64,000 bases of DNA from a virus, in IMG/VR virus record IMGVR_UViG_3300037200_000088, positions 1-64,000 of that record. One strand, written 5' to 3'. The notes beneath the pieces were generated by a model. It was not told the origin of the DNA. It did not search any database and saw only the letters and a program-made list of their open reading frames with translations. Positions 6,695 through 48,074 of this stretch are shown here, piece after piece. The translations under genes were made by a program, and so were the position numbers. Within the stretch, counting starts at the first letter, position 1. Each line of letters opens with the position of its first letter.

Positions 6695-8308
6695 ATGATT
6701 TCGCATTCCGGTCGCCGTGCCCGTGCGGCAAATCCCGAACAATCGAAAACCTCCAAGACGAAAGTTGGCCGTTATTCCGAGTTGGAATACGGCGTTCTCG
6801 TTTCGTCGCCGCGCGAACGCTTCGAAGCGGCGACTTGCGATAGCGCAAAAGTCTTCAAGACAGATGCGACGGGGCTTTGGGAATTGTATCTGAAGGGGCT
6901 TCCGGCGCCTGAGCGGCAGTATCACAACTGCCATTGCTGCCGGACCTTTATTGAGCGGTTCGGCTCTCTTGTAGTCATTGACGACAAGGGCATCGCTTCG
7001 CCCGCTCTTTGGACTGAGGATTGCGCCGGGCTGTACCATGACGCATTCGCTGCGATGTTTCACGCTGTCAAGTCCGCTAGGGTTACCGGCGTTTTCCTTT
7101 GCAAGAAAACGACGTGGGGTATCCCCGAAACGCCGGGCTGGACGCACTTGTCCGCCTTTCCTCCGGCTCGCCTTGTCTATCGCGAAACCGCCCTCACCGC
7201 CGGGCAAAAGATGGCCGCCAAGCGCGAGGATTACATCACCATTTCGCGCGCGCTTTCCGAATACCCTGCGGAAATAATCGATCAGGCGATTCGCTTGTTT
7301 GATGCGGATGCATTGGCTCGTTCTGAACGGTTCCTTGAACCAGCAAGATGGTTGCGCCGACTGCATGATCGACCGCGCGGTCGCCTAGGCGAAAACATCT
7401 TGTGGCGCGAGGTCGCGAGCGCCCCGGACGGCTTTTGCCATATCAAGTCCTCCGTTATCGGTCCTCTATTGGATGCGATCAGAGAAGGAAAGCCCTTCGA
7501 CGAAATTCGCCGCTCGTTCGAATCCATGCTGCACCCGCTTCGCTACCAGCGCCCAACCGAAGCGCCGAACGCCGGGAATATCCGCGCGGCGGAACTTTTG
7601 GTCGAGAAACTCGGCGTTTCGCGATCTCTCGAACGAAGGTTCGCGCGGCTCGACGAAGTCCCTCGCGCGTGGACCCCGAAGCCTTCAAAGGAGCCCTCGA
7701 ACGAAGGCGGCGTTTTTGCTCACGTCAAAGCCAAAAGCGGCGGCGCATCGGTTCGTCCCGTCGAAATCGGCGAGACCGTCGTAACCGCCGTTAAGTTCCT
7801 AGACAAGGTTTTGCCGAGCGCCGAAAAAATCGAATTGTTGGTTCCGGGGCACGGCAACTTCATCGCCATGCTGACGGCGGAGCACGCTGACGCGCCTGTA
7901 ATCCACAAGTGGGGAAACGCGTTTTCTATCTATGTCTACCACAACGGAAGCCCCGCTTCGACTTGGAAGCTAGCCGCGCACGCATGGGCTGAGGTTACGG
8001 CGTTCGTTCGAATGCCGTCGATGTGGGGAGAAACCCCCTCGCCACATCTCGGAGACGGCTACGTTATCGCTCTCAAAGGCGCGGTCGATGTGAGTGAAAA
8101 CCAAGGCAACGCTCTTTTTCCAGAGACGCTAATTGGCGAGCTTCATGGGGCAAGATCGGTGGTCGAGGCGTATTCCAAGGCCGCGAAAATCGGCGGTAGG
8201 GAAAACGCTTCGGTCTGCGGATATGCCTTGCGAGGGGGCGGTGACGTTCGCCTGAGAGTGCTTGCCAACGGCGGGACAGCGTTGTACAGGATCGACCGTT
8301 GGGATTGA
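6695..8308 (+). CDS. 537-aa protein of unknown function with HNCxCC motif (moron)
   Basis: GGAGA SD before ATG 6695; ERQYHNCHCCRTFIERFG motif; antisense to late operon. Confidence 0.85.
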   Translation: MISHSGRRARAANPEQSKTSKTKVGRYSELEYGVLVSSPRERFEAATCDSAKVFKTDATGLWELYLKGLPAPERQYHNCHCCRTFIERFGSLVVIDDKGIASPALWTEDCAGLYHDAFAAMFHAVKSARVTGVFLCKKTTWGIPETPGWTHLSAFPPARLVYRETALTAGQKMAAKREDYITISRALSEYPAEIIDQAIRLFDADALARSERFLEPARWLRRLHDRPRGRLGENILWREVASAPDGFCHIKSSVIGPLLDAIREGKPFDEIRRSFESMLHPLRYQRPTEAPNAGNIRAAELLVEKLGVSRSLERRFARLDEVPRAWTPKPSKEPSNEGGVFAHVKAKSGGASVRPVEIGETVVTAVKFLDKVLPSAEKIELLVPGHGNFIAMLTAEHADAPVIHKWGNAFSIYVYHNGSPASTWKLAAHAWAEVTAFVRMPSMWGETPSPHLGDGYVIALKGAVDVSENQGNALFPETLIGELHGARSVVEAYSKAAKIGGRENASVCGYALRGGGDVRLRVLANGGTALYRIDRWD

Positions 8309-8312
8309 GTTT

Positions 8313-8385
8313 CAGGTTATAGCTCAGTGGTAGAGCGTCGGAATCTGGTTCCGAAAGTCGCTGGTTCGATTCCAGTCTAACCTGA
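8313..8385 (+). tRNA. Atypical tRNA, anticodon CTG (Gln by anticodon; C1-G72/A73 Pro-like acceptor)
   Basis: CAGGTTA/TAACCTG acceptor, GCTC-AGTGGTA-GAGC D arm, TCGGA-ATCTGGT-TCCGA anticodon arm, GCTGG-TTCGATT-CCAGT T arm, extra C8377, no encoded CCA. Confidence 0.8.
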
Positions 8386-8392
8386 CCTTCTT

Positions 8393-8428
8393 GAGACGCC
8401 GCCAATCGCACTGGCGGCGTTTCTATTT
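8393..8428. terminator. Hairpin terminator between convergent units
   Basis: GAGACGCCGCCA/TGGCGGCGTTTC 12-bp stem followed by TATTT. Confidence 0.7.
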
Positions 8429-8838
8429 CAGGACTTGGCGGTTCCGGGCGCGGGGGCGAGCGCAGTCGTCGCCGGGACTGTCGGCGCAGTTGTGGTTGGA
8501 GCCAGAACCACCGTCTGACCGACCACACCCTTGCTGAACAGCGTACCAAAGATTGTGCTTAGCCTCGCTCCAGCCGGCCCCAGATCCGTCATGATCTGGC
8601 GTCCTTCCGTGACCAACGCCTGCACGTCCGTGATGGCAGTCGGAGCGACATTCGTGAGCGCGGTCGCCGCCGCTTGCGCCCCAGCGACGAACGGCGCTGC
8701 GCCGGGGATCAGCCCCACGGCCGGCAAGATCTCTTCCCCGAGTTGGACAGCGGGCGCGATGAAAGGCTGCACTTTCGTGTAGGCGTTCTCGACGTCCGTA
8801 AACAGACCTTCTAGAAAAGTCTCGGCTGCATTGCTCAT
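8428..8838 (-). CDS. Hypothetical amphipathic protein (lysis region)
   Basis: GAGGT SD; clean ORF. Confidence 0.75.
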   Translation of the reverse strand: MSNAAETFLEGLFTDVENAYTKVQPFIAPAVQLGEEILPAVGLIPGAAPFVAGAQAAATALTNVAPTAITDVQALVTEGRQIMTDLGPAGARLSTIFGTLFSKGVVGQTVVLAPTTTAPTVPATTALAPAPGTAKS

Positions 8839-9010
8839 TTGGATTTTACCTCAGCCTCGTGATTGACGTGAGCACCGCGAGGCAGCAGTGCTCACGATCC
8901 CCTCGTGGCGCCAGGGAGCCAGCGCCCGTCATAGGGAATTCGGATTGGAATTTAGGGGAAGGATTTTCAGACGAACGCAAAAGCGCCGAAGGCTTCTAGC
9001 GCGCGCCGGC

Positions 9011-9955
9011 TCAAGCCAGCGAATTTATATCCTCATTTCGAGCCCTCAAATAGCGATCGAAGGCGCGCTCCAGGTCCGGTTTATTGCCGGAAAACTCGAG
9101 GACGCCGTCAGTATTGCGCTTAAGGTCTGTCGTCGGATCGAACCCGTGCTCAAGGAACATATTCCAGCGGCTTTCGTAGCTACGGTCGCCCTTCCGGCCG
9201 TGGAAGGGATGCTCGATCGTGTGCTGAACGAACCCGAGTTTGCCGTTGATCTCAGTCGCCGCCCTTTGCCCCCAGGCTACGACCGCGTTGCGATAGTTGG
9301 CCGACACCGGCGTTGGCAATGAGGTTTCCGCTTTCCCGATTAGGCCAAGCGCCATATGAAAGTCGCCCGCCCCCATGCCACCGAGATCAAACAGGCCTCC
9401 GATGCGATCTAGTGTCGGGCGCGTCCATGCCCATGCGTAGCCTGGATGCGGGTAGTCGTAGTTTCCGCCTGACCACCGCCACAAGCCTTTCTCGCCGTTG
9501 ACGGGATTCCCCGAATGCCACGCAAAAGCGAACGAACGAAACAAGCTCATGCTCTCGTCGTTTGGACCAAGATCGTAGGCCGTGTCCCATGGTTGAACAA
9601 CCGGGTAGAGGTCTAGCGCCTTCAGCGTCGCGTCCGCCCAGTGACCGCGACGAAATTTTATGTCGGCGTCGAGCGTCGCTATCTTCATTGCCGAGCGCGG
9701 CAACCTGGAAATGCCGATGTTAAGCAGGCATTCCTTTGACCAAGCGAGCGTCGTCGCGCGCACGCCGATGTGGGTGACGCGCGCGCTGGCGAGATCGGCG
9801 AGCGCGAATGCTCGCGAGCCGTATGCCGCCTCGACTAATGTAACGTCGACTTCGGGGGCTTTGAGCCAGTCCGCGATTGCCGCGCGCGCTAACGCATCGC
9901 GCGTTTTCCAGCCGAGTGGATTGGCTACGCAAGTGATGACGTGCAAGGTTTCCAT
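9011..9955 (-). CDS. Putative GT-A-fold glycosyltransferase-like protein
   Basis: LHVITCVANP, WSKECLLNIG, LDADI (DxD), HPGYAWA, GAGD motifs. Confidence 0.55.
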   Translation of the reverse strand: METLHVITCVANPLGWKTRDALARAAIADWLKAPEVDVTLVEAAYGSRAFALADLASARVTHIGVRATTLAWSKECLLNIGISRLPRSAMKIATLDADIKFRRGHWADATLKALDLYPVVQPWDTAYDLGPNDESMSLFRSFAFAWHSGNPVNGEKGLWRWSGGNYDYPHPGYAWAWTRPTLDRIGGLFDLGGMGAGDFHMALGLIGKAETSLPTPVSANYRNAVVAWGQRAATEINGKLGFVQHTIEHPFHGRKGDRSYESRWNMFLEHGFDPTTDLKRNTDGVLEFSGNKPDLERAFDRYLRARNEDINSLA

Positions 9956-10000
9956 GAGCCGCCTCTTGCTCTGGGGGTGGGGGAAGGGTGTCGGACGCGC

Positions 10001-10237
10001 TCAGCGCTCCGCTTCAATCTGCCTGTCGATTGCGACGCGCGCCTTTTCGTGGCCGTGAAAGCCGAGGGCGTTGATCGCGGCTTGCTGCCCCGACCGGCGC
10101 GCCTCCATGAGGATAGGCAAGACGCCCGCGGCAATCCTGCGCTTTGTCTCGCGCGGGCCTTTCTTGGCGCGCGCAGCCTCGAGCGCGAGATCGGCTATCC
10201 TGTCGGCGAGCGGAGTGAGGCCGACGTCTTCGCTCAT
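10001..10237 (-). CDS. Hypothetical protein
   Basis: ATGA coupled to endolysin. Confidence 0.6.
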   Translation of the reverse strand: MSEDVGLTPLADRIADLALEAARAKKGPRETKRRIAAGVLPILMEARRSGQQAAINALGFHGHEKARVAIDRQIEAER

Positions 10238-11103
10238 GCCGCGAGCGCTTTCTCGTAAGCGTCGCGCGTGAGCGGCCCGTAGACGCCATCAATCTCGGCG
10301 AGGCCGACCGCCTCCTGAAAGGCTTCGATCTCCGCCTTCAGTGCCAGCGCGGCCGCGCGGACGGGCGTAGGCGCGCTGGCGACGCCTGCTGGGGCCGACG
10401 TCGGCGCTGCGGGGCTCGCCGGACCTGGAGCGATGCGGCCGGGCGTCGCGGCATTGATCGGAAGCATCTTACGGGCCTCGGCGAGCGCCGCCTGGTGGTT
10501 TGCAAGGTTGATGATCTCGCCCGTCGCGCGGCCGCTGCCCACGAGCGCCCAGACCGCGTTGAACTCGCCTTCGTCGCAATAGCTGAGAATGCCTCGATAT
10601 TGGACGAACAGCGCGACCGTGCATTCGAGCATGTGCTCGGCCGAAGTGACGATCGCCGGCGTCCGTAACAGCGGCAGCCCGGTCGCCTTTTCAAGGTCGG
10701 AAAAATTATCCCTGCCGGTGATTTGGATCAGACCTTGACCGCGGTAGAGCCATCCGTCATTCGGACCCGTGTTGCCCATTCGGCCGCCGTAGACCCGGTC
10801 ACAGAACGCTTGCGGATTGTGCGCGTAAGGGACCGCGCTTTCAACCGTGGGAAAATACTCATGAAACACCACATGCGCGCGAGCAGCGTCGTAGTTGTCG
10901 TTCTCCGTCAGGACGGTTAGGCCGCCAGTTTCCTCCAGGACGGTCGACATGAGACCGAGCACGCGGTTCTCGTTATTGAGCGCATACTTCGCAAAAACAG
11001 CTTCGGATTGATCGGCGATGGCCGCGACGATATCGACATGACCGTGCGGCGCGGCGCGGCGAATCTGATCCGCGGTGAGACAGAGCGACATGGGGTGCCT
11101 CAT
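10234..11103 (-). CDS. Endolysin, glycoside hydrolase family 19, with C-terminal PG-binding-like segment
   Basis: EETGG..LTEN, GRMGN..PNDGWLYRGQGLIQITGRDN; FQ...GL..IDGVYGPLT. Confidence 0.9.
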   Translation of the reverse strand: MRHPMSLCLTADQIRRAAPHGHVDIVAAIADQSEAVFAKYALNNENRVLGLMSTVLEETGGLTVLTENDNYDAARAHVVFHEYFPTVESAVPYAHNPQAFCDRVYGGRMGNTGPNDGWLYRGQGLIQITGRDNFSDLEKATGLPLLRTPAIVTSAEHMLECTVALFVQYRGILSYCDEGEFNAVWALVGSGRATGEIINLANHQAALAEARKMLPINAATPGRIAPGPASPAAPTSAPAGVASAPTPVRAAALALKAEIEAFQEAVGLAEIDGVYGPLTRDAYEKALAA

Positions 11104-11164: not shown

Positions 11165-13282
11165 TCAGAAGCTTTCAACAATGATCGCGTACCCGCTCGC
11201 GCCAGCGCCACCTGCGCCCGCAGTCCCGCCGTTATCAGCGCAGCCACCTCCGCCACCACCGCCGCCAAAGGTGCCGCCAGCACCGCCTGCACCCGCGGCG
11301 GTTAGCGATGAACCACCTCCGGCACCGCCCGCTCCCGCTAGTTGTGTGTAGGGTTTTGCGCTCGTAAAAGACGCGCCGGCGCTACCAGTAACTCCCGCAG
11401 CGCCGCCTGAGGCTTGTGTCACGCCAAACTGCGGAAAACCGCCTGCGCCACCGCTGAATACAGCGTTAATGGCAGATATTCCCCCGCCTGCGCCAGCGCC
11501 CGATGCGCCGTTGTTTGGAGTAGACCAATCGGCGTTGCCGCCATTTGGCCCTGCACCACCATTCAGACCGCCCGCGCCGCTACCACCCGAGTTGAAAGAT
11601 CCGGAATTTGCAGCGTTACCGTTTGCGCCATAACCTCCGGCCACCCCCGCCCACGCGGCAGACCCTCCCGCGCTACTGCTGCCGTTACCCGCAGGCGACG
11701 TACCATATGCCCCGCCGCTTCCGCCACCGCCGGAATTTGAGGCAAGCTGACCGCCGGCCCCGCCGCCGCTTCCGTTAGCATAGAGTAAAGTTCCGAAGCT
11801 TGTGGTGCCTCCTCCAGCTCCATTGCCTCCGGCTGTGGTAGAACTTGTCGCGGCCGCACCGGCTGAGCCACCGCCGCCAATGGTAACTGTTAGAGATGTG
11901 CCGATTGCGGATATTGCAAATGTCGCTGCATTGGCTCCTCCTCCACCGCCGCCGGAGCCGCCCGAACAGGCGGCTAAGGATGCTTGAAGTGCGCCACCTC
12001 CGCCACCGCCTCCACCACCAACTAAAAATACGTCGACTTTCGCTGCACCGACGGTTGGAGTGTAAGTTGCCGCGCCGCCCGATGTCGTGAGTGTACAGCC
12101 ACTTGCGCATACGGTTATGATGTTCGTTTTATGGGACCACGTAATGTTTGCCTGTCCTGTCCCACAAAAAACAGAATTTGGCGAAGCAAATGCGATAAGC
12201 TTGTTGAGTGGGCCGATAGTTGTGCTTAGCGCGGTTAAGTCAATGTCCATCGCGCAAGTTCCACTCCCGGATTGCTGGAACAGCGTATTGTCAACGCTTA
12301 TATAGGGAGCGCTTATTCTTATGTTTGCTATTGTCGCAGTGTCGACCGCAACGCCATCAACAACATCAGAGTATCCATTGAGTTGCATATCATACTGTGG
12401 ATATAAACCGGATACGGCTTGCCAAGTGTGGGTCCCAGGACCAAAGTGGTTATTACCCGTTGCATTATCTATGATGTTAGATATCGACGCGCTGGTAGCT
12501 ATCAGCCCGGTAAAATCGCTGTCACTAGCGCCGTTTTCGAGATCGTGTGGGGGCAGATCAGCTAAAACACTGTAGCAAGTATGGCCGGTATCGTTTACGT
12601 TTTGAATGAGATTTCCGGTTCCAAGAGACTCTTCATAGCCTCCACTAGCTGTTCCATTTTGAGTTGCCGTTTGAAACCTAACGTTCGATCCCGTCATGGA
12701 AGCGTTTGCTACGTTCCGATAGACTACATTGTATGACGTAAAACCGCGAGAATAAGCGATGTCGAGATCATGAGCCGCAAGGCAGTAACCGTCTACCCGC
12801 AGGTTATTGAGACTAATCTGGACAAGTGTGCTGGCAACACCCTCTGTTAGAACCGAAGCGGGCGGCGTCGCACATCCCGGCATGACTCGTATCGTCGCCC
12901 CAGCAGAAGCTCCATTTATCACAAGCGAAACTGTCGTCGGGAGACTTACCGTGGCGGCGCATACGTTATACGCCCCGCTCGGCGGCGGCGGCAGATACAA
13001 CGTCCCTCCGCCGTCCGCAGTCAGTTGCGTGATCGCCGCGTTGATCGCCGCGCTATCATCCCCACCCGTTCCCGCCGATGCGTTGAAGTCCATCGGTGTG
13101 CGCGTCCACGCGGATCGTGTCGACGCGGAAGCTGCTGCCGAGCCGCCGTTCGCCGTGTACGGAACAGACGCCGACGGACCATTGAAATCCGCGAACGCGG
13201 GCGCGATGAACAGCCAAACAAACGCGAATAGCGCGAACCCGGCGCGCATCCTCGAAGCCGCGCGAGAGAGCAAGCCGCGCAT
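11165..13282 (-). CDS. Beta-helix (pectate-lyase-like) spike/fibre protein with Gly-rich C-domain and N-terminal signal peptide
   Basis: TPMDF...DDSAAINAAI...GGGTLYLP beta-helix cap; YTPT.GA..VDV.LVGGGGGG domain; FALFAFVWLFIAPAFA leader. Confidence 0.75.
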   Translation of the reverse strand: MRGLLSRAASRMRAGFALFAFVWLFIAPAFADFNGPSASVPYTANGGSAAASASTRSAWTRTPMDFNASAGTGGDDSAAINAAITQLTADGGGTLYLPPPPSGAYNVCAATVSLPTTVSLVINGASAGATIRVMPGCATPPASVLTEGVASTLVQISLNNLRVDGYCLAAHDLDIAYSRGFTSYNVVYRNVANASMTGSNVRFQTATQNGTASGGYEESLGTGNLIQNVNDTGHTCYSVLADLPPHDLENGASDSDFTGLIATSASISNIIDNATGNNHFGPGTHTWQAVSGLYPQYDMQLNGYSDVVDGVAVDTATIANIRISAPYISVDNTLFQQSGSGTCAMDIDLTALSTTIGPLNKLIAFASPNSVFCGTGQANITWSHKTNIITVCASGCTLTTSGGAATYTPTVGAAKVDVFLVGGGGGGGGGALQASLAACSGGSGGGGGGANAATFAISAIGTSLTVTIGGGGSAGAAATSSTTAGGNGAGGGTTSFGTLLYANGSGGGAGGQLASNSGGGGSGGAYGTSPAGNGSSSAGGSAAWAGVAGGYGANGNAANSGSFNSGGSGAGGLNGGAGPNGGNADWSTPNNGASGAGAGGGISAINAVFSGGAGGFPQFGVTQASGGAAGVTGSAGASFTSAKPYTQLAGAGGAGGGSSLTAAGAGGAGGTFGGGGGGGGCADNGGTAGAGGAGASGYAIIVESF

Positions 13283-13935
13283 CAGTTCGCCCCCACGCTA
13301 ACGGGCGTCGAAGCCGCCGAGGCAATAGCGTGCACAGCGCCTGTAGGAACCAACGTCCCGCCGTCGGGCCACGACCTATGCCAGAGCGGCGGGAGGGTGA
13401 TTTCGCCCGCGGCGCATTGAGTTCCCGTGATCGTTGCCGCCGCGCCGAAGTTGATGCAGACCGTCGCGGAAGGACTCCCGCTGATCACGTCGAGATAGTT
13501 GGTGACCGCGTTCGCCGCGAGGATTGTGACGTCGGAGGTCCCTACCGTCTGCGCCGTATAGGGCGACGCGGACTTCGACGGCGTCAGGCTTTCGACCGAA
13601 GCCGCCGCCGCCCCGACCGCCCCCGACGAAACCACCGCGCTTGCGCCATTCGCCCCAAGCGCCCAAATATGCGAGGTCGTCTGAACCGGCGCCGGCGGAT
13701 CCCCGAACCGCTGCACATGGCCGCCGGAATTGTTGGCCGGCTGCGAATCCGCGACCTGATAGATCACGTTGCCACCGACCGCGCCGAGCAGGATCGGGCC
13801 GGGGCCAAGGTCGGTGTAGGTGGTCGAGCTCAGCGAGACGACATTGGTCACCGTCGCCGCGTCGGCGGGGACCGCGGACGCGAGCCATAGGCACGCGATC
13901 GTCGCCGCAAACCACCGTTTCGACATTTCAAACAT
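13282..13935 (-). CDS. Small beta-sandwich protein with signal peptide (putative spike connector)
   Basis: SKRWFAATIACLWLASAVPADA leader; two beta-rich modules; TGATG coupling. Confidence 0.7.
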   Translation of the reverse strand: MFEMSKRWFAATIACLWLASAVPADAATVTNVVSLSSTTYTDLGPGPILLGAVGGNVIYQVADSQPANNSGGHVQRFGDPPAPVQTTSHIWALGANGASAVVSSGAVGAAAASVESLTPSKSASPYTAQTVGTSDVTILAANAVTNYLDVISGSPSATVCINFGAAATITGTQCAAGEITLPPLWHRSWPDGGTLVPTGAVHAIASAASTPVSVGAN

Positions 13936-13949
13936 CTTGTAAGCCTCGC

Positions 13950-16538
13950 TCAGATCCCGCCGTCAGCTGTGTAGTGGGCGCACAACAGATCGCCGATGCC
14001 GCTCACCGTCGCGCCGGCCTGGATCGTAAAGCCGTTGGCGCTGACGCCAGCCGCGGGAACCGAGGCCGTCACGCTGGCGCCGGCCGTCACGTCCCACCAA
14101 TTGGCGTTGGCGGCATCCGGATTGAATATCGCGATCGTCGGCGCCTTCAGCATGGGCGTCTCGAACGGGACCGTCAGCGAAGGCTCGCCGTTGGCAATCG
14201 GGTTGCCGACACACGACGCGCCCCCCGTCGCGCCTGTCGCTGTGAGGGTCCCCGTCGCCGGCGATGTTCCGCCGCCAAATGTATAGGTGAAGGTCGTCGG
14301 GCTCGTGACCGTGACCGCGTAGGACCCATTGTAGGCGCTCGGCGTCGCGCCCGCGATAGTCAAGGTCTGGCCGTTGGCGATCAGCGCGGTGTTGGCGACC
14401 GTCGCCGTCGCCGTAGTCGAAGACGATGTCAGGCTGCTGATTGAGAGCGATCCGGCGTTTTGAGCCGGCAGCACGCCTTGCGGGAAACTCGACCGATAGA
14501 ACAGCCGTACGCGGCCAAGCTCTTCGGCATAGCTGCGCTGCTGCCAGCCGTTGTCCGCCTCCGCCGCCACCAGACGCACAGAGCTATAGTCGAGCGACGA
14601 ACCGTTCGGCTCCGAGACGAAGGGCGTCGCGCTCGCCGCCGCATTGGCGTTGCCGCCGATCCACTGCCGATAAGTTGATGTCTGCGAGCCTGTTCCGCTT
14701 CCGGTGTCGAACACGACCTTGAGCGAAGCCAAGCCAGGCGCAGTGATTGCAAAATTCGCGTTCGGCGCGGTCTGGTTGTAATTGTCGTAGGGAATTCGGA
14801 AAGAGAAGGTCTGAAGCGTTCCCGCTGCGGCTGTGTAAGTGAACGGGATGACATAGTCGGTCGTGGCGTTGATATTCTGGATCGACACGCTCTGGGTGAG
14901 CGGCGTCACCGAAGACTTCATCTGGAACGACAGCACCAAATCGCGCGGCGTCTGATTACCGCCAGACGTCCAGTTCAACTCTTGGGCGAAGGCGCCGGGG
15001 ATATCTTGAACGATGCCATGAAGTTCGCCTGAGGCCGGTGAACCGCTGGTCGAGACAACGGCATGCAGGCTCGACGCGCAAAATCCGAAGTTGTTGGCGA
15101 CGGTCTCGAAAAATTCAGAGCCGGTCGATTGATACGTTCCCCATTGATCCGGACCAAACCCCGCGGAGAACGCCGTGCGGTTTTTTCGCTGGTCGAAGTA
15201 GAAGCAAGGATTGGTGATCAGGTTGCCAGATTGCGGTGTGGTGAAATTGCTGCCGCCGACGATGTTGGTCGCACCCTTCAGCCCGTTAAAATCGTTCGGA
15301 CCGAGCCCCACGTTGAGTACATTTCCGACGTCCGAATAGCCGTAGCTGGTGTTGCCTCCGCCGTCGTCATAGACGGTGTTGCCCTCGAGATAGCTGCCGT
15401 TGGCGACATTCGACGGCTGCCCCGGGACCGAAGCGACAAAGCCAGAGTTGTAATAGTCGGAATGGTTGCAGGTGCCCGCGTCGACGGCGCGGTTCCCGAG
15501 CAGCGAGACCTTGCCGTAAAAGGTAAAACCCGCGCCACACGTCTTGTAGGACGTGTTGCCCGATACGACGACGCCGTTGTAGCCGATCTCGTAGCCGTCC
15601 AGCCAAGTGTTGCTGGCGTCGGCCGATGTCATCGAATTCTCGACCTTGTTGTCCTCGACGGTCACGTTCTTGGTGACAGGGTCCGACCAGCCGACGACCT
15701 CGAAGGTAATCCCGGCGCCATACCCCCAGCCGTTGACTCGGTTGCGGTCGATGTGGTGATTGTCGCCGACGCCGAAGACGCCGACGCCGGTATTGACCAG
15801 CCAATTATCGGTGACGTCCAAATTCGACGATGGAAAACTCTGGTTGCCGCAGTTGACGCCCTCGTTGAACTGGTTGCTCGGCGCGGTCAGCGAGAAATAA
15901 TTGCGCGCGATATGCGCGCTGGTCATGCCGTAGCACTGGATCAGATAGAGCGCGCCGCCCGTGGTGAGAGAGCCGTTGACAACCGCGCTATCCTCGAAAT
16001 CGAGAGCGCCGCCCGGCGAGGCATAGATTCCGCCGGCGTAAACCGAGGCCGTGTTGCCGCCTAGATCGAGCGTGAAATGTTCGAAATGATGCGTCTGCCC
16101 GTTGCCGGCGAGGGTCAGAATAACGCCGTTTGGCGTCTGTCCGGAGGCCACCTTGAGGCCGCCGCCGTGGATGCCTTCGAAACGGAAATTCTGATTGATG
16201 GTCGGGAAGTTCGCCCAGTTGACCAGGCACGTCCCGGGAAAGGTGACCTCGAAGCCGCCGGACGTCAGATTGAGCTGGTTGATCATCGCCGTGACTTTGG
16301 CGGTGTCGTTGGTCGCGCCATCGCAGGCGAGACCAAAATCGAGGCGCGCGTCGAGTTGCGCGCCATCGTGGGTCGCGCGCCGCGCCGGCGACGCCGGGAA
16401 CAGGCCCGGGCCAACGCCGGTGAACGGCACGAGCGGCCCCGAGGGTGCGCCCGTTCCGGCAGGAACAGCAAGCGCCGCGGTAGACAGCGCTCCCCCAAGC
16501 GCGAAAGCTAGATAGCCGGCGAGAAGTCGCTTGATCAT
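13950..16538 (-). CDS. Right-handed beta-helix tailspike/depolymerase-like protein with signal peptide
   Basis: DFGLACDGATNDT cap, Asn-ladder repeats, fibre-type C-terminal modules; MIKRLLAGYLAFALGGALSTAALA leader. Confidence 0.8.
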   Translation of the reverse strand: MIKRLLAGYLAFALGGALSTAALAVPAGTGAPSGPLVPFTGVGPGLFPASPARRATHDGAQLDARLDFGLACDGATNDTAKVTAMINQLNLTSGGFEVTFPGTCLVNWANFPTINQNFRFEGIHGGGLKVASGQTPNGVILTLAGNGQTHHFEHFTLDLGGNTASVYAGGIYASPGGALDFEDSAVVNGSLTTGGALYLIQCYGMTSAHIARNYFSLTAPSNQFNEGVNCGNQSFPSSNLDVTDNWLVNTGVGVFGVGDNHHIDRNRVNGWGYGAGITFEVVGWSDPVTKNVTVEDNKVENSMTSADASNTWLDGYEIGYNGVVVSGNTSYKTCGAGFTFYGKVSLLGNRAVDAGTCNHSDYYNSGFVASVPGQPSNVANGSYLEGNTVYDDGGGNTSYGYSDVGNVLNVGLGPNDFNGLKGATNIVGGSNFTTPQSGNLITNPCFYFDQRKNRTAFSAGFGPDQWGTYQSTGSEFFETVANNFGFCASSLHAVVSTSGSPASGELHGIVQDIPGAFAQELNWTSGGNQTPRDLVLSFQMKSSVTPLTQSVSIQNINATTDYVIPFTYTAAAGTLQTFSFRIPYDNYNQTAPNANFAITAPGLASLKVVFDTGSGTGSQTSTYRQWIGGNANAAASATPFVSEPNGSSLDYSSVRLVAAEADNGWQQRSYAEELGRVRLFYRSSFPQGVLPAQNAGSLSISSLTSSSTTATATVANTALIANGQTLTIAGATPSAYNGSYAVTVTSPTTFTYTFGGGTSPATGTLTATGATGGASCVGNPIANGEPSLTVPFETPMLKAPTIAIFNPDAANANWWDVTAGASVTASVPAAGVSANGFTIQAGATVSGIGDLLCAHYTADGGI

Positions 16539-16548
16539 CGTAGGTCTC

Positions 16549-16902
16549 TCAAACCAGATTGTAGACAGTTGCCGTGGCGGCGTTCGAACCTGGAAAGTTG
16601 AACTGCGTGCATTGGAACGGGTAAGTCTGCCAACCGACTCCCACCGGCAGCGTCAGCGCCGACGAATCTGGAAATGTGAACGTCAGATTGCCAGCAACAG
16701 ACGCCAGCACGCCGACCGATCGTTGCGGCTGATAATTCTGCCCTGCTGACATCGCGACCGCGCCAGCAAAAGCCGCGCTTTGCATGTCGGAGGTGACAGG
16801 CACAAACGGCCCGGCGCCGACACCGCTCTGATCGATGAAGGCAACCGGCTTGATGACCGGATCGGCGGTCCGCGCGTTGAGCGTGGTCAGGATTGCGGGC
16901 AT
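16549..16902 (-). CDS. Spike base protein (RcGTA Rcc01079-like)
   Basis: AVAM....RSVGV...AGNLTFTFPD....LPV..G..YPF pattern and size. Confidence 0.6.
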   Translation of the reverse strand: MPAILTTLNARTADPVIKPVAFIDQSGVGAGPFVPVTSDMQSAAFAGAVAMSAGQNYQPQRSVGVLASVAGNLTFTFPDSSALTLPVGVGWQTYPFQCTQFNFPGSNAATATVYNLV

Positions 16903-16914
16903 GTGGTCAAATCC

Positions 16915-17172
16915 TCACAGCAGATAGCCGGGCAAGCTCATGTCGAGCGTTAAGGTCACCAGAATCGATCCAGGCAGGCTCATGTCGAGCGTCAGCGTCA
17001 CGGGGGCAGGATCTGGCACGCCTTCCGTTAAGCTCGCCAAGGCCGCTGCCTGCGCCGCGCTGGCCGTTGCTGCGGTTGCAGCCGCCGCCGACGCCGCCGC
17101 ACTCGCCGCGGTCGCCGCAATGGTCATGGCAAGGCTCGGCACGGCGGAAGGTTGATGGCCGCCTCCGCGCAT
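16915..17172 (-). CDS. Ala-rich small protein ending in two TLTLDMSLPG motifs
   Basis: Paralog of the C-terminus of the upstream gene; AGGA SD. Confidence 0.55.
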   Translation of the reverse strand: MRGGGHQPSAVPSLAMTIAATAASAAASAAAATAATASAAQAAALASLTEGVPDPAPVTLTLDMSLPGSILVTLTLDMSLPGYLL

Positions 17173-17228
17173 GGCGCAAAATCCTAAAGCAGGGTGTAGC
17201 CGGGAACGCTCATGTCGAGCGTTAAGGT
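16936..17228. repeat. Three copies of GCTCATGTCGAGCGT (16936, 16978, 17208)
   Basis: Copies 1 and 3 share 21 nt (GCTCATGTCGAGCGTTAAGGT). Confidence 0.9.
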
Positions 17229-17741
17229 GATCGGGAATTCGTCATCGTATACTGAGACGAGCGTCGCCACGGCTGCAGCAGCAGCGCCAGCCGAGACCGC
17301 CGCCGTTACCGCACTGCCCGCCGCTGCCGCGATGGCGCTGGCGACGCTCGGCATGGCAAAGAGCGGTTGTGCCCCAGCCATCCTCCAGGTGTCGTCGGCG
17401 CCCGTAGGAGCGCTCGGCGATCCGCCCACGGCAGCCTCGGTTACGCCGCCGTGGAAGGCGATCGATCCCCAGCCCGCAAGTTCGAAATCGCAGCCCGGCA
17501 GGATAAAGCCGAAATCGTAAGTCGCGGGCCCTGGCGTCAGCGCCGCCAGGGCCGCCTCGGTCCACCGGAAAGTCACAACCGGCGCAATGCCGCCAGTATA
17601 GATCTGGTCCCCGCTGTCCGAGTCAAGCAAGAGTTGATCGGACCAATTGCGGATTTGCATGCGCCATGTCGCGCTCGCGAGCGAGGGGTAGAGTGTCGCA
17701 AAATCCACGACCGCGAAGCTGACCTGCTGGCGTTGGTTCAA
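17184..17741 (-). CDS. Tail/spike adaptor protein, paralog of the N-terminus of 17769-19658 (start may lie about 20 nt upstream)
   Basis: Shared LN.R.Q, W..QIR, GF.LPG.D.E, APTGADDT blocks. Confidence 0.7.
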   Translation of the reverse strand: MNQRQQVSFAVVDFATLYPSLASATWRMQIRNWSDQLLLDSDSGDQIYTGGIAPVVTFRWTEAALAALTPGPATYDFGFILPGCDFELAGWGSIAFHGGVTEAAVGGSPSAPTGADDTWRMAGAQPLFAMPSVASAIAAAAGSAVTAAVSAGAAAAAVATLVSVYDDEFPITLTLDMSVPGYTLL

Positions 17742-17768: not shown

Positions 17769-19658
17769 CTAGATGTTGTTGCCGCCGTTGACGACGCCGT
17801 TGAGGCTGCCTCCGGTCAGCAGATATCCACCGCCGCTGTTCAACGAGATGTTATTGACGACTAGACAGTTCCCCCCCAAGCCAGCGGTCTCTACATCATA
17901 GAGCGTCGCGTCGATCGCTACGCTCTCCGCCCCCGTTCCGTCGAAGACGTTGTTTGTAACGATGCCAGGCAAGAAGAAATCGTTCGAGCTCATAAGAACC
18001 AAGCCAGGCGGGCAAGCCACGCCGCCAGTGCCTCCCGGGGCAGCCGCCGTTGCGGTAAACGTCGTCCCTACCGTGTTGTTTGGCGATCCTAGCGAGGTCC
18101 AACTCGTGCTGCCGGCGGTGATGATGGTGTACCGATCTCCGACGGTGAGATACTGTGGATCGAGGTTGCTGGTAATCACCGTATTTCCTACGAAGCGGAT
18201 ACCCCCGCATCCATTGAACTTCGCGGTTCCCAACGAGCAGCCCTGCACTCTCCACTCAACGTTATCCTGATCGGTTGCAGCCATGTCGATAGACCGAACA
18301 GATTGACCGATGATCAAACTGTCGAGGACAAAAACCCCTTGCGGGTCCTGGTTAACACCAGTCCCGCCGCTCGCATGAAATTGGACTCCGAAACACCCAC
18401 CGAGCAATGTGCACTTCTCAAAATAGATGGCGGTAGGAACGTTTGGCGAAGAACCCGACAAGGAGGTTTTATGCACGACGCAGGCCGATTGACTTCCTAG
18501 AACCGCGTCGGCGGCGGCGCTGAAGTTGATGTAGCAATCGTTCATATCCTGCAAGAACAGGCCAACGAAAGCAAACTTCTGTCCATAGGTTGCTGACGCG
18601 GTATACAGCGAGACGTTGTCGATGACGCACGACCGAACGCCCGCGCCTGGCGCGCCGGCTATGCCAGTCATTTTGACGTTGATGGCGCCGACTATTGTTC
18701 CGACCGCGCTTCCGATTGAGTCCCCGACAGGGCAATCTATTACGACCTTGAAGTCCCTGAGCAGAAGCGAGCCGCACTGGCCGTCGTAGGAGTTGGCGTC
18801 TGCAATGGCGAAATTGAGCGTGGCGCTCGCGCTTCCGAGAATGATCTTCGACTGGCCGCCGACGCCGAACATACTGACGGCCTGGTTGATTGCGATCGTT
18901 GCCCCGACCTGGGCTGTGATCATGTACTCGCCCGCCAGCAGGGCCATCTTGCCGCTGTTGATGGCGCCCTGGAGGGGTATGGTGTCGTCGGTCAGGCCTA
19001 GGCCGCCGGCTTCGAACATTTCCGGTGTGACAAAGGCCCCGGAAAACAAGACGCCGCTAGGGCCGACCAACGCAGCGCCGAGAGCGATTGCGCCCGAGCC
19101 CTGGAGTACATGCGGGGTGGGCGAGTAAAGCGCGAGTTGCCCAGCGCTGCCAAACCCTATAGCCGCCGCGACCGCCGCATTGATCGCGGCGGTGACTGTC
19201 GCATCCAACGTGACCGTCGCCGCTGGCGTCGGGTTGGCGCCGCCGATAACCGTGTCATCAGCGCCCGTCGGCGCCGCTGGTGTCCCGGCCGCTGGCGGGA
19301 CAACGACGCCGGCCAAGAAGGCGATCGTCCCGCCGTCGACTCGCTCGTAATCCGCGCCCGGCAACGTGAAGCCAAGTTCGGCTGAATATGTCAGGGTCGC
19401 CACGCCGATCAGCAGCGAGGCTGGACATCTGACGACAACCTGCGCCGGAGGCCCCGCAAGGAAGGCCACCGTCGCATTCGCATTTTGCGGCGAGCCGCCG
19501 GTGCGAAAATCCAGCGTTATGACCGGCGACCCCGCCATCGGACGGATCTGGAAAATCCAGACCGCCTCAGCGAGGTTCGAATAAATGCTGGCGAAGTTGG
19601 AGACGTTGTAGGTGAACTGGAAACGCTCGTTGAGATAAGCGGTGAGGCTTAATGTCAT
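17769..19658 (-). CDS. Tailspike: adaptor N-terminal domain plus beta-helix
   Basis: VTPEMFEAGGLGLTDDTIPLQGAIN cap; ATGA-coupled start at 19658. Confidence 0.8.
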   Translation of the reverse strand: MTLSLTAYLNERFQFTYNVSNFASIYSNLAEAVWIFQIRPMAGSPVITLDFRTGGSPQNANATVAFLAGPPAQVVVRCPASLLIGVATLTYSAELGFTLPGADYERVDGGTIAFLAGVVVPPAAGTPAAPTGADDTVIGGANPTPAATVTLDATVTAAINAAVAAAIGFGSAGQLALYSPTPHVLQGSGAIALGAALVGPSGVLFSGAFVTPEMFEAGGLGLTDDTIPLQGAINSGKMALLAGEYMITAQVGATIAINQAVSMFGVGGQSKIILGSASATLNFAIADANSYDGQCGSLLLRDFKVVIDCPVGDSIGSAVGTIVGAINVKMTGIAGAPGAGVRSCVIDNVSLYTASATYGQKFAFVGLFLQDMNDCYINFSAAADAVLGSQSACVVHKTSLSGSSPNVPTAIYFEKCTLLGGCFGVQFHASGGTGVNQDPQGVFVLDSLIIGQSVRSIDMAATDQDNVEWRVQGCSLGTAKFNGCGGIRFVGNTVITSNLDPQYLTVGDRYTIITAGSTSWTSLGSPNNTVGTTFTATAAAPGGTGGVACPPGLVLMSSNDFFLPGIVTNNVFDGTGAESVAIDATLYDVETAGLGGNCLVVNNISLNSGGGYLLTGGSLNGVVNGGNNI

Positions 19659-20242
19659 GGCGCTGGCCACGCTGCGGCGTCAATCGCGGCTTCTGTCGTG
19701 ATCGTCGCGGCGGTAATCGCGGCCATGACTGTTTCGAGCGCGGCGAAGGTCGACTGAACCCAATCTGCGATATTGTCGGCGGTCGTTAGGAAATCAGCAG
19801 CGGAGATCGTCACGAAGGCGCCAGTCGAAGAGAATTGCCAAAGCACGCTGGTCGGCGCGCCGGATTGTTGTAGGCGCAGCGCGTTGCCGGTGATCAACGC
19901 CAGCGAAGTCGGGTCGGTGGCGAATAGGTAGGAGGTTCCCTCGATCGTTACGTTGTGGCCGCCGGTCGCTAACGTCCATTGCTTCGCGTTGGCGTAGGCT
20001 AGGAGTTGCGCGGTCGTTGGAGCCGGAAGCGTCGGGGCTGCGGGCGCGATCAGCGCGCCGCCGGAGAGCGTCCATCCAATCCCGGCGCCGGGCTGGATCA
20101 TGAAAGACGACCCGGTCGGCGGCGACATCGTTGCACCGCCGGGCAGCGAAAGAACGCCGCCGGATAGCGTCGCCGCGGCGTCGACCAGCAGCGTGTTGAC
20201 GACGACGCCGCCCACGACTTCTTGAACAATTTGCGTAACCAT
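19655..20242 (-). CDS. Tail fibre assembly-type protein (DUF4376-like)
   Basis: LLAYANAKQW...GG, ATD..S, WVQSTFA, ITT.AAIDAAAWP; follows fibre gene. Confidence 0.75.
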   Translation of the reverse strand: MVTQIVQEVVGGVVVNTLLVDAAATLSGGVLSLPGGATMSPPTGSSFMIQPGAGIGWTLSGGALIAPAAPTLPAPTTAQLLAYANAKQWTLATGGHNVTIEGTSYLFATDPTSLALITGNALRLQQSGAPTSVLWQFSSTGAFVTISAADFLTTADNIADWVQSTFAALETVMAAITAATITTEAAIDAAAWPAP

Positions 20243-20253
20243 CCGCGCGCCCC

Positions 20254-21765
20254 TCAGAATTTGATAATGACGAAGCCATTGGCGCCGGTCCCGCCGTTGG
20301 CCGTGCCGCTGGCGCAGGCGCCCCCGTTTGACCCGCCGCCTGGAAACAGACCGGCCGCACCGACAGGACCGATGACCCCCCAATTTGGCGCGCCACCCCC
20401 GAATGGTGAGCCGCCGCCCGCGCCGTTGACAGGGAGCGCGCCAGATCCCGTGCCGGTGGCTGAGCCGATACCGCCCTGCTCGCCGTTCAACTCGATTTGA
20501 GCACCGAAGCCGCTGCCACCGACGCCCGGAACGTTGATCGCGTTAGGCGACCCGCCGCCGCCGCCGGTCGCATAAACCGGCGTGGTTGACCCAAAGGTGG
20601 TCGTGCCGCCAGCGCTGCCGTAATTGGCGCCGATGCCCCCGGTGCCGCCGGCTCCCACCGTGACGGTGATCACCTGCCCGGGCGTGACCCCTACGTCGTA
20701 CGCGTGCGCGTAACCACCGCCGCCGCCGCCGCTCGATGATGCGTTGGTCCCGGAGGAGCCGCCACCAGCGCCGCCAGCGCCCCAGAGTTCAACCTCTTTC
20801 AGGTTGTAGAGTCCCGCCGGAACCGTCCATGTGGTTGAAGAAAGAAACGGTATTACCTGCGATATGGCTTGGCTGTCGGTGTAGACGCCTAGCAACTGAG
20901 CCGACGACCCGGTGTTGGAAAAGAGAGTGTTCGCGCTGGCCTGAATGTCGTTTTTCTGGCAAGGCGTCCCATCCGCCCGGGTAATGGTCAACTGGCCGAG
21001 CGATCCGATCTGGATCGTGGGCGTCGTTGTCTGGTTATTGTGAGCGACGTCCACCAAGTAGAGTTGGCCCTGCTTGTAGGCCGTGATCGCCGGCGCAAGA
21101 TTGGTGACCTCGATCGCGTCGGCCGCGCCACTGTCCGCGCCGAAATACGGGCCGACGCCATTGACGCTGGCGCTGGTGCTGTAGGCGTCGATCAGTTGGA
21201 CGCCCGAACCTGTATCGGCGAACAGCGTATCCGCGCCGGCCTTGATGTCGTGCGGCTGGCAAGGCGTCCCGTCCGCCCTGGTGATCGTTTGCACGCCGAT
21301 CGAATTGATCTCGAATGTCGGCGTCGTGGTCAGATTGTCGTGCGCGACGTTGATCAGGAAAAGCTGGCCGGCGACATAACCGGTAATCGAGGGCGAGAGA
21401 TCGGTAACGTGGATAGCGTCCGCCGATCCGCTGTCGATCCCGTAGTAGGGGCCGAGGAACCCGGTAGGCGGCGCGGGAAGATTGGCGGCGATGACGGCTT
21501 CGAGCGCCGCCAGAAACTCCGCCTCAAGCGTCGCAACATTGCCATCGTCGTTGACGTTGGCCGACTGATGATCGGCGGTAAATTGCGCAATCATGGTCGC
21601 GACGACGCTCGCTTGGCGCATCGCATTGTTGAAGGTCACCGGGTCGGCAATGCCGATTTGCGCACCGAGTTGGCGGATCGTCGCCGCAGCATAAGCCGCT
21701 GGTGTCGCAGGTATATTCGCGCCAACCCCAGTCGCCCAGGTGACAAATTCGTTGGTGGGAGGCAT
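20254..21765 (-). CDS. Tail fibre protein with duplicated domain and Gly-rich C-terminus
   Basis: TNEF..WATG.GAN / NNAMRQAS..ATMIAQF baseplate-anchor N-terminus; WTVPAG...VELWGAGG domain. Confidence 0.85.
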   Translation of the reverse strand: MPPTNEFVTWATGVGANIPATPAAYAAATIRQLGAQIGIADPVTFNNAMRQASVVATMIAQFTADHQSANVNDDGNVATLEAEFLAALEAVIAANLPAPPTGFLGPYYGIDSGSADAIHVTDLSPSITGYVAGQLFLINVAHDNLTTTPTFEINSIGVQTITRADGTPCQPHDIKAGADTLFADTGSGVQLIDAYSTSASVNGVGPYFGADSGAADAIEVTNLAPAITAYKQGQLYLVDVAHNNQTTTPTIQIGSLGQLTITRADGTPCQKNDIQASANTLFSNTGSSAQLLGVYTDSQAISQVIPFLSSTTWTVPAGLYNLKEVELWGAGGAGGGSSGTNASSSGGGGGGYAHAYDVGVTPGQVITVTVGAGGTGGIGANYGSAGGTTTFGSTTPVYATGGGGGSPNAINVPGVGGSGFGAQIELNGEQGGIGSATGTGSGALPVNGAGGGSPFGGGAPNWGVIGPVGAAGLFPGGGSNGGACASGTANGGTGANGFVIIKF

Positions 21766-22636: not shown

Positions 22637-22858
22637 ATGACCGTTGACGAGCTGCGCACCGCACTTGAGGGCGTGCCGGGCGAGCTGGAAGTGCAAATGT
22701 ATTGCGATCAAACGCTTGCGGAGGTGGACGTCGCGCACGTCGCTCGTCTGGACAGAAACTCGCGCATGAAACTTGGCGAGCCGTTATCCCCGAGGGGGAC
22801 ACCCTTCTTTGCGGTCGGCGATAAATATCCTGATAAATCCAAGCCTACGGATTGCTGA
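22637..22858 (+). CDS. Small antisense hypothetical protein
   Basis: GGAGG SD; MTVDELRTALEGVPGELEV is a common phage N-terminus; fills gap in baseplate operon. Confidence 0.65.
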   Translation: MTVDELRTALEGVPGELEVQMYCDQTLAEVDVAHVARLDRNSRMKLGEPLSPRGTPFFAVGDKYPDKSKPTDC

Positions 22859-24044: not shown

Positions 24045-24045
24045 T

Positions 24046-24435
24046 TTAGATCGGACCTAGGAAGACATATTGGCCGAACGACGTGTCGACCTTGGCGGCG
24101 ACATTCCACTGGCGCGTCTGCCGATTGAGCTGCGAATTGTAGCCGTCAATCCCGTTCACGTTCGGCGTGGCAAGGATGCGCTGTTGGATAGTCGCGTCGC
24201 GGAAGTCCTCGGTGTATTTGCCAAGCACGCGGGTCAACCAAGGCGTGCCGTCGTCGACATTTAAAAACCATTGCCCGAGCCAAAGTAAAAGACGCGTCTC
24301 GACCAACTGACCGACGCCTTCCGCCTTGTTGATGTAGTAGTCAGACGCGCCATGGCCGAAGACCATGTCTCCGCCGCCGGCGCCGGTGATAGCGACGCCG
24401 CCGGTAACAGGAGGACTGAGTTTTCTGATCCTCAC
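24046..24435 (-). CDS. Baseplate wedge subunit (gp46/gp25-like)
   Basis: RL.LWLGQWFLN..DGTPW..VLGK. Confidence 0.85.
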   Translation of the reverse strand: MRIRKLSPPVTGGVAITGAGGGDMVFGHGASDYYINKAEGVGQLVETRLLLWLGQWFLNVDDGTPWLTRVLGKYTEDFRDATIQQRILATPNVNGIDGYNSQLNRQTRQWNVAAKVDTSFGQYVFLGPI

Positions 24436-24438
24436 GCC

Positions 24439-48066: not shown

Positions 48067-48074
48067 GCGGCCCC

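Follow-up and report, generated by a model that had tools for sequence, protein, structure and literature searches.

Three adjacent genes for spike- and fibre-like proteins with predicted Sec leaders at the tail-fibre/lysis junction of a contractile-tailed peat phage

The virus record IMGVR_UViG_3300037200_000088 is 75,113 bp long, has direct terminal repeats and is rated 100% complete; the window that we analysed is its first 64 kb. Scans with PHROG profiles identify the virus as a contractile-tailed phage, and the DNA comes from peat metagenomes. Between the tail-fibre block and the endolysin gene lies a cassette of three adjacent late genes (11165-16538, minus strand), whose products P0003, P0002 and P0001 each begin with a basic and then hydrophobic segment that ends in an AxA motif, as expected of an export leader. 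An earlier note on this DNA had drawn attention to these leaders; the three genes are found at the coordinates that it gave, on the minus strand, with the translations that it quoted. Behind the leaders, the proteins are predicted to be built from a right-handed beta-helix, a fibre tip resembling carbohydrate-binding modules (CBMs), a Gly-rich fibre domain and a small beta domain. The positions of these features and of the surrounding genes are collected in Table 1.

The three leaders have the canonical n-h-c anatomy predicted for Sec-type signal peptides cleaved by signal peptidase I. The n-regions (MIKR in P0003, MFEMSKR in P0002 and MRGLLSRAASRMR in P0001) all carry a net charge of +1 or more. 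They are followed by uncharged hydrophobic cores (LLAGYLAFALGGAL, WFAATIACLWLASAV and AGFALFAFVWLFIA, in the same order) of 14, 15 and 14 residues with mean Kyte-Doolittle values of 1.89, 1.82 and 2.39, and by c-regions in which a helix-breaking Pro or Ser precedes the AxA motif (STAALA/V, PADA/A and PAFA/D, the slash marking the predicted cut). Two other export routes were considered and ruled out: lipoprotein sorting, since the residues at +1 are V, A and D and there is no lipobox Cys, and twin-arginine translocation (Tat), since no leader contains a twin arginine. Each of the three starts is the first ATG, GTG or TTG past the upstream in-frame stop and is preceded at 7-8 nt by a purine-rich run resembling a Shine-Dalgarno (SD) sequence. 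For P0003, this run is GAGA and the preceding gene is 10 nt away; P0002 begins at its first ATG, 14 nt from the preceding gene and 8 nt behind a GAGG run; the P0001 start overlaps the preceding stop (TGATG, a distance of -1 nt) and has a GGGGG run 7 nt before it. The earlier note had allowed that the real starts might lie downstream of the hydrophobic segments, and no alternative start of this kind was found in any of the three genes: the first 35 codons of P0003 contain no in-frame start that would skip the hydrophobic segment, and the internal Met codons M4 and M12 of P0002 and P0001 are still upstream of it. Leaders were scored with a home-made rule-based scorer, not SignalP, using the phage's own six-frame open reading frames (ORFs) as background. 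Across the entire 75-kb genome, 129 ORFs reach 150 aa, and only three of them scored 2.8 or more, namely P0001, which has the top score, P0003 and P0002; the next-best ORF, at 2.61, is antisense to the head protease gene. Judged by this scorer, leaders are absent from all other tail genes.

The leader recurs in relatives of all three proteins. It is found in all four full-length P0003-type proteins, the relatives P0005, P0006 and P0015 each having a leader of its own, in 8 of 9 members of the P0001 family (P0001 and 7 of its 8 relatives) and in 45 of 51 P0002 relatives. The remaining member of the P0001 family starts at the conserved MDFN block and may be truncated. Dozens of relatives that are 30-60% identical have a leader, whose own sequence drifts. 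A profile of the P0003 C-terminal domain (C-domain) retrieved 7521 proteins at E up to 0.001 from 1.84 billion representatives; among the best 142 with both key alignment columns, about 80 have a leader and the others have classic tail-fibre N-termini. On the tree of this domain, leader status changes at least 19 times, which indicates that the fibre tip has switched many times between an exported and a cytoplasmic architecture. Two full-length relatives, P0025 and P0034, lack a cleavable leader and instead have a polar cytoplasmic N-terminus of about 25 residues followed by a hydrophobic membrane helix (...LVTGATIMALLTAIIGTFYLYG), an architecture that fits a signal anchor tethering a periplasm-facing protein to the inner membrane. 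Short relatives such as P0103 and P0124 consist of a leader and the fibre tip alone, with no enzyme domain.

The cysteines of the C-domain go with the leader. The columns corresponding to C776 and C853 of P0003 are both Cys in 62 of 79 leader-bearing proteins versus 15 of 62 leaderless ones (odds ratio 11, Fisher p 1e-10), and 13 of these 15 are fragments, signal-anchored forms or proteins with sub-threshold leaders, as read by eye from their N-termini. At columns C445 and C487, both residues are Cys in 32 of 79 leader-bearing versus 4 of 62 leaderless proteins. When phylogenetically independent pairs were drawn from a FastTree tree, in which five rows had been re-labelled by eye beforehand, the Cys pair followed the leader about six times and opposed it in none (median p 0.03). 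Among the 9 sequences of the P0001 family, the two that lack C167 are also the two that lack C236, and in P0002, C160 is kept in 51 and C174 in 49 of 52 sequences. Paired cysteines that arrive with a leader fit what is expected of proteins folding in an oxidising compartment, outside the cytoplasm. The mature proteins contain 10 (P0003), 2 (P0002) and 10 (P0001) Cys, as counted before; the even parity of these numbers was dropped as evidence, since the leaderless spike P0018 also has an even number (12). Because the feature is conserved, the fibre tip switches architecture and the cysteines track the leader, we take the leaders to be functional, and judged from sequence, export of the three proteins is very likely.

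P0003 consists of the leader, a short disordered linker, a right-handed beta-helix and a tail-fibre-tip domain. Its full-length AlphaFold2 (AF2) model, made from 4 sequences, has a mean predicted local distance difference test score (pLDDT) of 48.7 and is poor outside the beta-helix. The best Foldseek matches of the helix are the tailspike depolymerases CBA120 TSP4 and TSP2, Kp32gp38 and K2-2 TSP, with AlgE4 also found; E values against the tailspikes go down to 3e-7, with low template modelling (TM) scores, as the remaining model is poor. The C-domain, modelled from 39 sequences with a pLDDT of 82 and a predicted TM score (pTM) of 0.77, contains an insert specific to P0003 at residues ~696-768. 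Its first 230 residues match CBM4, CBM11 and CBM16 structures in the PDB, and CBM22 was also matched. In BFVD, the C-domain matches the distal part of phage long tail fibres (query TM score, TMq, up to 0.70; E 3.5e-25), the best partner being the long tail fibre of Ralstonia phage phiAp1 (TMq 0.70), alongside many fibres of cyanophages and of Erwinia, Xanthomonas and Agrobacterium phages. P0003 itself has no match to phrog_4492 ('tail fiber protein') at E up to 0.001; relatives retrieved by its profile (E down to 1e-60) match positions ~790-1094 of that family at E 1e-30 to 1e-48, a transitive link. By these models, the predicted C-domain is a CBM-like tail-fibre tip.

P0001 is composed of the leader, a short linker, a beta-helix and a Gly-rich domain. 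The DFNAxAGTGGDDS block with which its beta-helix region opens is a cap typical of pectate-lyase-type beta-helices, and it is this N-terminal cap motif alone that the profile matched. The family profile hits the A-module N-termini of AlgE6 (E 5e-6) and AlgE4 (E 4e-4), with iota-carrageenase as a further, weak hit, and P0001 has a weak NCBIfam match to the N-terminus of rhamnogalacturonidase; we predict that the P0001 N-terminus forms a pectate-lyase-type beta-helix. The two beta-helix spikes proposed from the DNA letters were thus supported, for P0003 by AF2 and Foldseek and for P0001 by the profile match of the cap. The Gly-rich domain of P0001 scores 27.5 bits against PF21722 (Gly_rich_2; cut-off 24.3) and matches phrog_863 at 1e-9. 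It had been said to occur also on the leaderless fibre at 20254-21765, and PF21722 is indeed above the cut-off in both proteins, with a distant likeness (E 0.03) when the two domains are compared directly. P0002 has a leader, an N-domain of ~90 aa and a conserved C-domain of ~100 aa with the Cys pair. Its C-domain is 55-69% identical to dozens of secreted metagenomic proteins of ~135 aa and resembles small viral beta domains (ESM Atlas). P0002 had no useful hit in sequence searches of the PDB, and no Pfam family was matched by P0002, P0003, P0004 or P0018. The motif of the P0002 C-domain (13282-13632), AT.C.N.G..ATI.G..CAAGEI.LPPLW, is unusually strongly conserved. One of its ~135-aa relatives is named for a metagenome-assembled genome (MAG) of Terracidiphilus (Acidobacteriota), and one lies on a 263-kb contig.

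Table 1. Cassette genes, their predicted domains and other late genes of the window; empty cells have no entry
Feature	Position	Strand	Basis or score
Endolysin, without leader, directly downstream of the cassette	10234-11103	minus	phrog_181 4.4e-43; no hydrophobic segment
P0001 gene, 705 aa	11165-13282	minus	
P0001 Gly-rich C-terminal domain, PF21722 at residues 400-615, on to the C-terminus	11168-12085	minus	
P0001 beta-helix region, ~residues 62-390, opening with conserved DFNAxAGTGGDDS block	12113-13099	minus	profile match
P0001 leader, residues 1-31, predicted cut before D32	13190-13282	minus	score 3.99
P0002 gene, 217 aa	13282-13935	minus	
P0002 leader, residues 1-26, predicted cut before A27	13858-13935	minus	score 3.02
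P0003 gene, 862 aa	13950-16538	minus	
P0003 C-domain, residues 440-862, CenC/CBM4-like jelly roll plus small beta domain	13953-15221	minus	
P0003 right-handed beta-helix, ~residues 60-420	15279-16361	minus	AF2 pLDDT 70-90
P0003 leader, residues 1-24, predicted cut before V25	16467-16538	minus	score 3.29
P0004, leaderless 117-aa ORF just upstream of the three leader genes	16549-16902	minus	
P0019, leaderless 185-aa paralogue of the P0018 anchor	17184-17741		E 2e-18 to P0018 N-terminus
P0018, leaderless 633-aa spike-like protein with N-terminal anchor domain of ~150 aa	17769-19670	minus	
DUF4376 protein, downstream of the fibre at 20254-21765	19655-20242		DUF4376 match
P0021, leaderless tail fibre with Gly_rich_2 C-terminus	20254-21765	minus	PF21722 2.4e-11, 44.5 bits; PHROG tail-fibre families
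Baseplate hub and wedge	22845-27005	minus	PHROG
Two tape-measure-like genes	27909-31780	minus	PHROG
Sheath	34117-35634	minus	PHROG
Major head protein	39716-40741	minus	PHROG
Portal	46186-48081	minus	PHROG

The genes after the baseplate come in the order fibre, DUF4376 protein, P0018, P0019, P0004, P0003/P0002/P0001 and endolysin. Models of tyrosine integrases and serine recombinases had no match anywhere in the genome, in scans in which the controls matched, so the phage is probably virulent, and lysogenic conversion, considered as a role for the cassette, is unlikely for the same reason. The missing integrase and resolvase, together with the contiguity of the cassette with the late genes, indicate expression during lytic growth. 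Promoter and terminator scans around the cassette did not rise above shuffled controls, no RNA dataset is listed as containing the DNA, and two metatranscriptome runs of a study containing this DNA had no cassette match, which is uninformative on expression. The same DNA is present in peat metagenomes of two studies; over the pieces compared, the cassette has no differing letters in the metagenome of the second study, so the phage is not confined to a single sample. Neither the cassette nor P0003 or the N-terminal half of P0001 found a match by megablast or tblastn among 50,697 cultured-phage records. Next to the endolysin gene, a simple hydropathy scan of 8073-11103 showed no holin- or spanin-like membrane ORF, and a 314-aa ORF (9011-9955) and a 136-aa ORF (8428-8838) have no family match. 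On the other side of the cassette, P0019 ends in an Ala-rich stretch plus TLTLDMSVPGYTLL, and an 85-aa ORF (16915-17172) contains the peptide TLTLDMSLPG twice.

Single-protein scans of viral contigs were nearly empty, and it was alignment-based scans that found the loci of relatives. Leader-bearing relatives sit at the tail-fibre/lysis junction of a second myovirus (L003), a prophage (L004/L009) and the podovirus-like L018, L022/G206 and L024. Eleven of the 32 viral contigs with the C-domain encode the leader-bearing form, or about seven once near-duplicates are collapsed. L014, L018, L022/G206 and L024 have 2-5 adjacent leader-bearing ORFs each, holin-like ORFs stand right behind the leader cluster in G206 and L024, and the portal or adaptor and major-head genes of L018 and L024 are different from those of the window. 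G206 also encodes an endolysin, a methyltransferase-like ORF and a phrog_1574 ORF. On this 40-kb podovirus-like contig (L051, 12204-18854), the leader ORFs are of 168, 174, 172 and 827 aa, with one of 459 aa nearby (L022); this five-ORF cluster, the largest seen, is interleaved with the methyltransferase-like and phrog_1574 ORFs and precedes the holin-like ORFs and the endolysin. Most large ORFs of the podovirus-like contig have no PHROG match, and the Pfam T7 tail-fibre model matched nothing in its scan, controls included.

In L003, the baseplate genes are followed by a Gly-rich fibre, a DUF4376 protein, a family 4 (GT4) glycosyltransferase, the leader-bearing beta-helix protein and Methyltransf_24. 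With the leader-bearing gene between the GT4 gene and the TylF/CmcI-like Methyltransf_24 gene (8247-12256 of L003), the end of the tail-gene block resembles a module for surface glycans or for protein glycosylation. Glycosyltransferase-like or methyltransferase-like neighbours of this kind occur with some relatives only, in L003 and G206. The prophage L004/L009 resides in a Rhodoblastus MAG and has tail genes of gene transfer agent (GTA)-like or siphovirus type with an Mtd-type fibre. Its series comprises a leader-bearing 599-aa protein, a leaderless 227-aa ORF that overlaps the start of the next gene by 4 nt, this next gene being the leader-bearing P0003 homologue, and then bacterial DNA polymerase genes. 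The 599-aa protein (7333-9132 of L004) has a clear leader (...LLCGAASA/DNIT) and is matched by no Pfam, PHROG or NCBIfam family; inspection by eye suggests a barrel of glycoside-hydrolase type together with a beta domain. Across 201 genomes of the Rhodoblastus order, the C-domain is found in 8, in one copy each, and all but the Rhodoblastus copy are leaderless fibres, a pattern that suggests a mobile phage-borne module, not a core bacterial family. In three Rhizobiales-order loci (L047, L049 and L050), leaderless proteins end in the last 150 positions of the fibre-tip domain and begin with N-termini (MDDTPKLKLPYIMAAQAQKHVTHNEALRALD) that may be of the DUF2793 (Rcc00171) GTA tail-fibre kind. 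In the other loci retrieved, nothing homologous to P0004, P0019 or P0002 accompanies the exported relatives, and P0017 of the Rhodoblastus prophage has no detectable relationship to P0019 (E 0.2).

How would exported proteins of this build serve a lytic phage? The earlier note had offered two fates, appendages that fold in the periplasm and dock on virions at lysis, or soluble depolymerases. Its premise of export gained good comparative support, the soluble option fits better, and nothing that we found supports docking itself. We therefore favour the statement that the three are exported, free, non-virion proteins that bind or cut glycans and are released at lysis, and as a whole we hold it with about even confidence. 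In outline, the host Sec machinery would export P0001-P0003 late in infection and signal peptidase I would trim them, as their anatomy and their relatives suggest; once they are in the periplasm, oxidative folding would form disulfides in the conserved Cys pairs. The free proteins may then act on envelope polysaccharide of the host, either on polymer that is crossing the periplasm or, after the product of the neighbouring endolysin gene has opened the cell, on the capsule, extracellular polysaccharide (EPS) or lipopolysaccharide (LPS) of the lysing cell and its neighbours. Speculatively, this would keep debris from trapping the progeny and would remove the glycan cover of cells nearby.

Several observations favour this soluble fate over docking. 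The mature N-termini ahead of the first conserved block are only 35-46 residues long and of low complexity, and the mature proteins have no similarity to the phage's own anchors (P0018, P0019 and the N-terminus of the P0021 fibre), which are the anchor types that were compared. Some relatives have an uncleaved-looking N-terminal membrane anchor, and relatives adjoin glycosyltransferase-like, methyltransferase-like and lysis genes. No cytoplasmic partner is conserved with the exported proteins, and secreted polysaccharide enzymes are typically built as a beta-helix of catalytic type plus a CBM; both points favour free proteins.

Other points weigh against this proposal of free, exported glycan-active proteins. 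Export, cleavage, disulfides and enzyme activity are all predictions, with leaders called by the home-made scorer in place of SignalP. The significance of the tree test of leader and Cys pair is modest. Because no catalytic residue was identified, glycan binding may be all that the proteins do. Modules of fibre type speak for a role in the virion, the C-domain also ends ordinary leaderless tail fibres, and the relatives P0011-P0013 have repeats like those of a fibre shaft behind their leader. A cytoplasmic enzyme would also be freed at lysis, so export needs a rationale of its own, and the disulfides that could provide it are themselves predicted. Finally, surface glycans would be out of reach of a periplasmic protein before lysis, barring a further secretion step.

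The same fibre and spike modules underlie the reading that the three are exported virion appendages, spikes that would fold and oxidise in the periplasm and dock at lysis on fibre-less or adaptor-bearing virions. The genes do lie in the tail-fibre block, tightly behind two small leaderless proteins, P0004 and P0019 (a duplicated anchor domain), that could be adaptors; the 227-aa ORF of the Rhodoblastus prophage overlaps its exported neighbour, shaft-like repeats follow the leader in some relatives, and the Cys-pair evidence fits docking as well as it fits soluble proteins. We nonetheless consider docking unlikely: the mature proteins bear no likeness to the phage's own anchor domains, none of the candidate adaptors is conserved with the exported proteins, signal-anchored variants would remain in the inner membrane, assembly after lysis would compete with dilution, and the literature searched offered no precedent in a tailed phage. 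Its general form, a widespread class of Sec-exported appendages that are disulfide-bonded in the periplasm and joined only at lysis to otherwise complete virions, seems to us quite improbable.

Export could also serve the envelope. In the style of Lom, Llp and Cor, the proteins might reside there as receptor blockers or modifiers, not as diffusible depolymerases. In an infected cell or a lysogen they would bind the glycan receptor that the phage itself uses, or trim it, and so stop superinfection and the loss of progeny on debris. Exported proteins among tail-fibre genes are known from lambda (Lom, PMC12309495) and T5 (Llp, PMC9586334). A prophage in a bacterial MAG contains one homologue, relatives made of leader and fibre tip lack an enzyme domain, signal-anchored variants exist, and L003 and G206 have glycosyltransferase-like and methyltransferase-like neighbours that recall seroconversion modules. 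For the phage studied here, with its cassette in the late block and no integrase or resolvase, expression would come late for exclusion; the P0001 Gly-rich domain is too distant from that of the phage's own fibre to be a simple copy of a receptor-binding tip; and a periplasmic site does not reach surface receptors. We regard this role as rather unlikely. More doubtful still, indeed very unlikely, is that the hydrophobic N-termini are not export signals at all and arose by chance, from mis-called starts or as cytoplasmic assembly or membrane-docking segments of ordinary virion proteins. The leaders are known from sequence and one scorer, GC-rich genomes yield N-termini rich in Ala, Leu and Arg, spurious short ORFs of this genome reach scores of 3.6, and the relative P0007 starts past the leader position. 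Yet the feature persists in diverged relatives without conservation of its sequence, it co-varies with Cys pairs, each start is the earliest one available and follows an SD-like motif, and three adjacent hits among 129 large ORFs are far from chance.

Tail spikes and fibres are made in the cytoplasm and added to the virion ahead of lysis, and phage depolymerases that occur free are usually surplus copies of them or copies from an alternative start. The loci described here present Sec-exported cassettes, as predicted, made from the same modules at the tail-fibre/lysis junction of unrelated phage types, with Cys pairs that track the signal. In the literature searched, of which coverage was incomplete so that the evidence is weak, there was no report of Sec leaders on spike or fibre proteins of tailed phages, and this recurring arrangement is apparently undescribed. 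Should the proteins be free enzymes or lectins, they would represent a class of phage glycan tools matured in the periplasm and stabilised by disulfides, possibly including robust depolymerases, and would bear on the escape of progeny from capsule- or EPS-rich peat hosts. Should they be virion parts, textbook assembly of tailed phages would need an extracytoplasmic step, which would be a major surprise. In either case, annotation as 'tail fiber' would misassign many exported proteins, since about half of the best 142 C-domain relatives have a leader.

Each of the closest known analogues has one aspect in common with the cassette proteins. In body plan, these are the tailspike depolymerases (CBA120 TSP2 and TSP4, Klebsiella phage KP32gp38, P22, Sf6 and HK620), which have the right-handed beta-helix body predicted for P0003. 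Tailspike and tail-fibre proteins also share the gene position in the tail-fibre block, and the C-domain is common to P0003 and ordinary tail fibres. Known tailspikes carry a particle-binding domain at the N-terminus and join virions while still in the cytoplasm, and we know of no phage tailspike depolymerase with a signal peptide. Unlike these, the cassette proteins begin with a Sec-type leader, do not resemble the phage's own anchors and have Cys pairs that go with the leader. In the GTA of Rhodobacter capsulatus (RcGTA), Rcc01079 is the head spike base and Rcc01080 the fibre (PMC5026251). The earlier note had called the ORF at 16549-16902 (P0004) an Rcc01079-like spike base, a pentamer on which its docking option relies, and this label found no sequence support: P0004 had no match to PDB chains at E up to 10, no Pfam or PHROG match, and no Rcc01079 model among its NCBIfam matches at E up to 1 (an Rcc01079 entry in the PDB or NCBIfam was not verified). 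The likeness comes down to TM 0.50/0.53 over 77 residues with an Atlas cluster named 'spike base protein, RCAP_Rcc01079 family', a comparison between predicted models that is borderline for this length.

Phage proteins that have signal peptides and are encoded beside tail-fibre or receptor-binding genes include lambda Lom (PMC12309495) and T5 Llp (PMC9586334), both envelope-bound and non-virion. Of the two, Lom forms a beta-barrel in the outer membrane and Llp is a small lipoprotein, and neither is built from spike or fibre modules, unlike the cassette proteins. Late export to the wall compartment by the host Sec machinery, ahead of lysis, is known for the signal-peptide endolysin Lys44 of Oenococcus phage fOg44 and for SAR endolysins (PMC6116005). 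These are peptidoglycan hydrolases of the lysis system, whereas the endolysin next to the cassette has no leader. Exported beta-helix enzymes are known from bacteria: WceF of Pantoea stewartii is Tat-targeted and has a tailspike-like trimeric fold (PMC7949094), and VexL of Burkholderiales acts in the periplasm on polymer in transit (PMC6003464). Both have a beta-helix and an N-terminal signal and act on the cell's own capsule or EPS; their likeness to the cassette proteins is one of predicted fold and export. Their genes are chromosomal and lie inside polysaccharide biosynthesis clusters, whereas those of the cassette stand in the late structural/lysis block of a phage, encode Sec-type leaders and add fibre-tip or Gly-rich fibre domains to the exported product.

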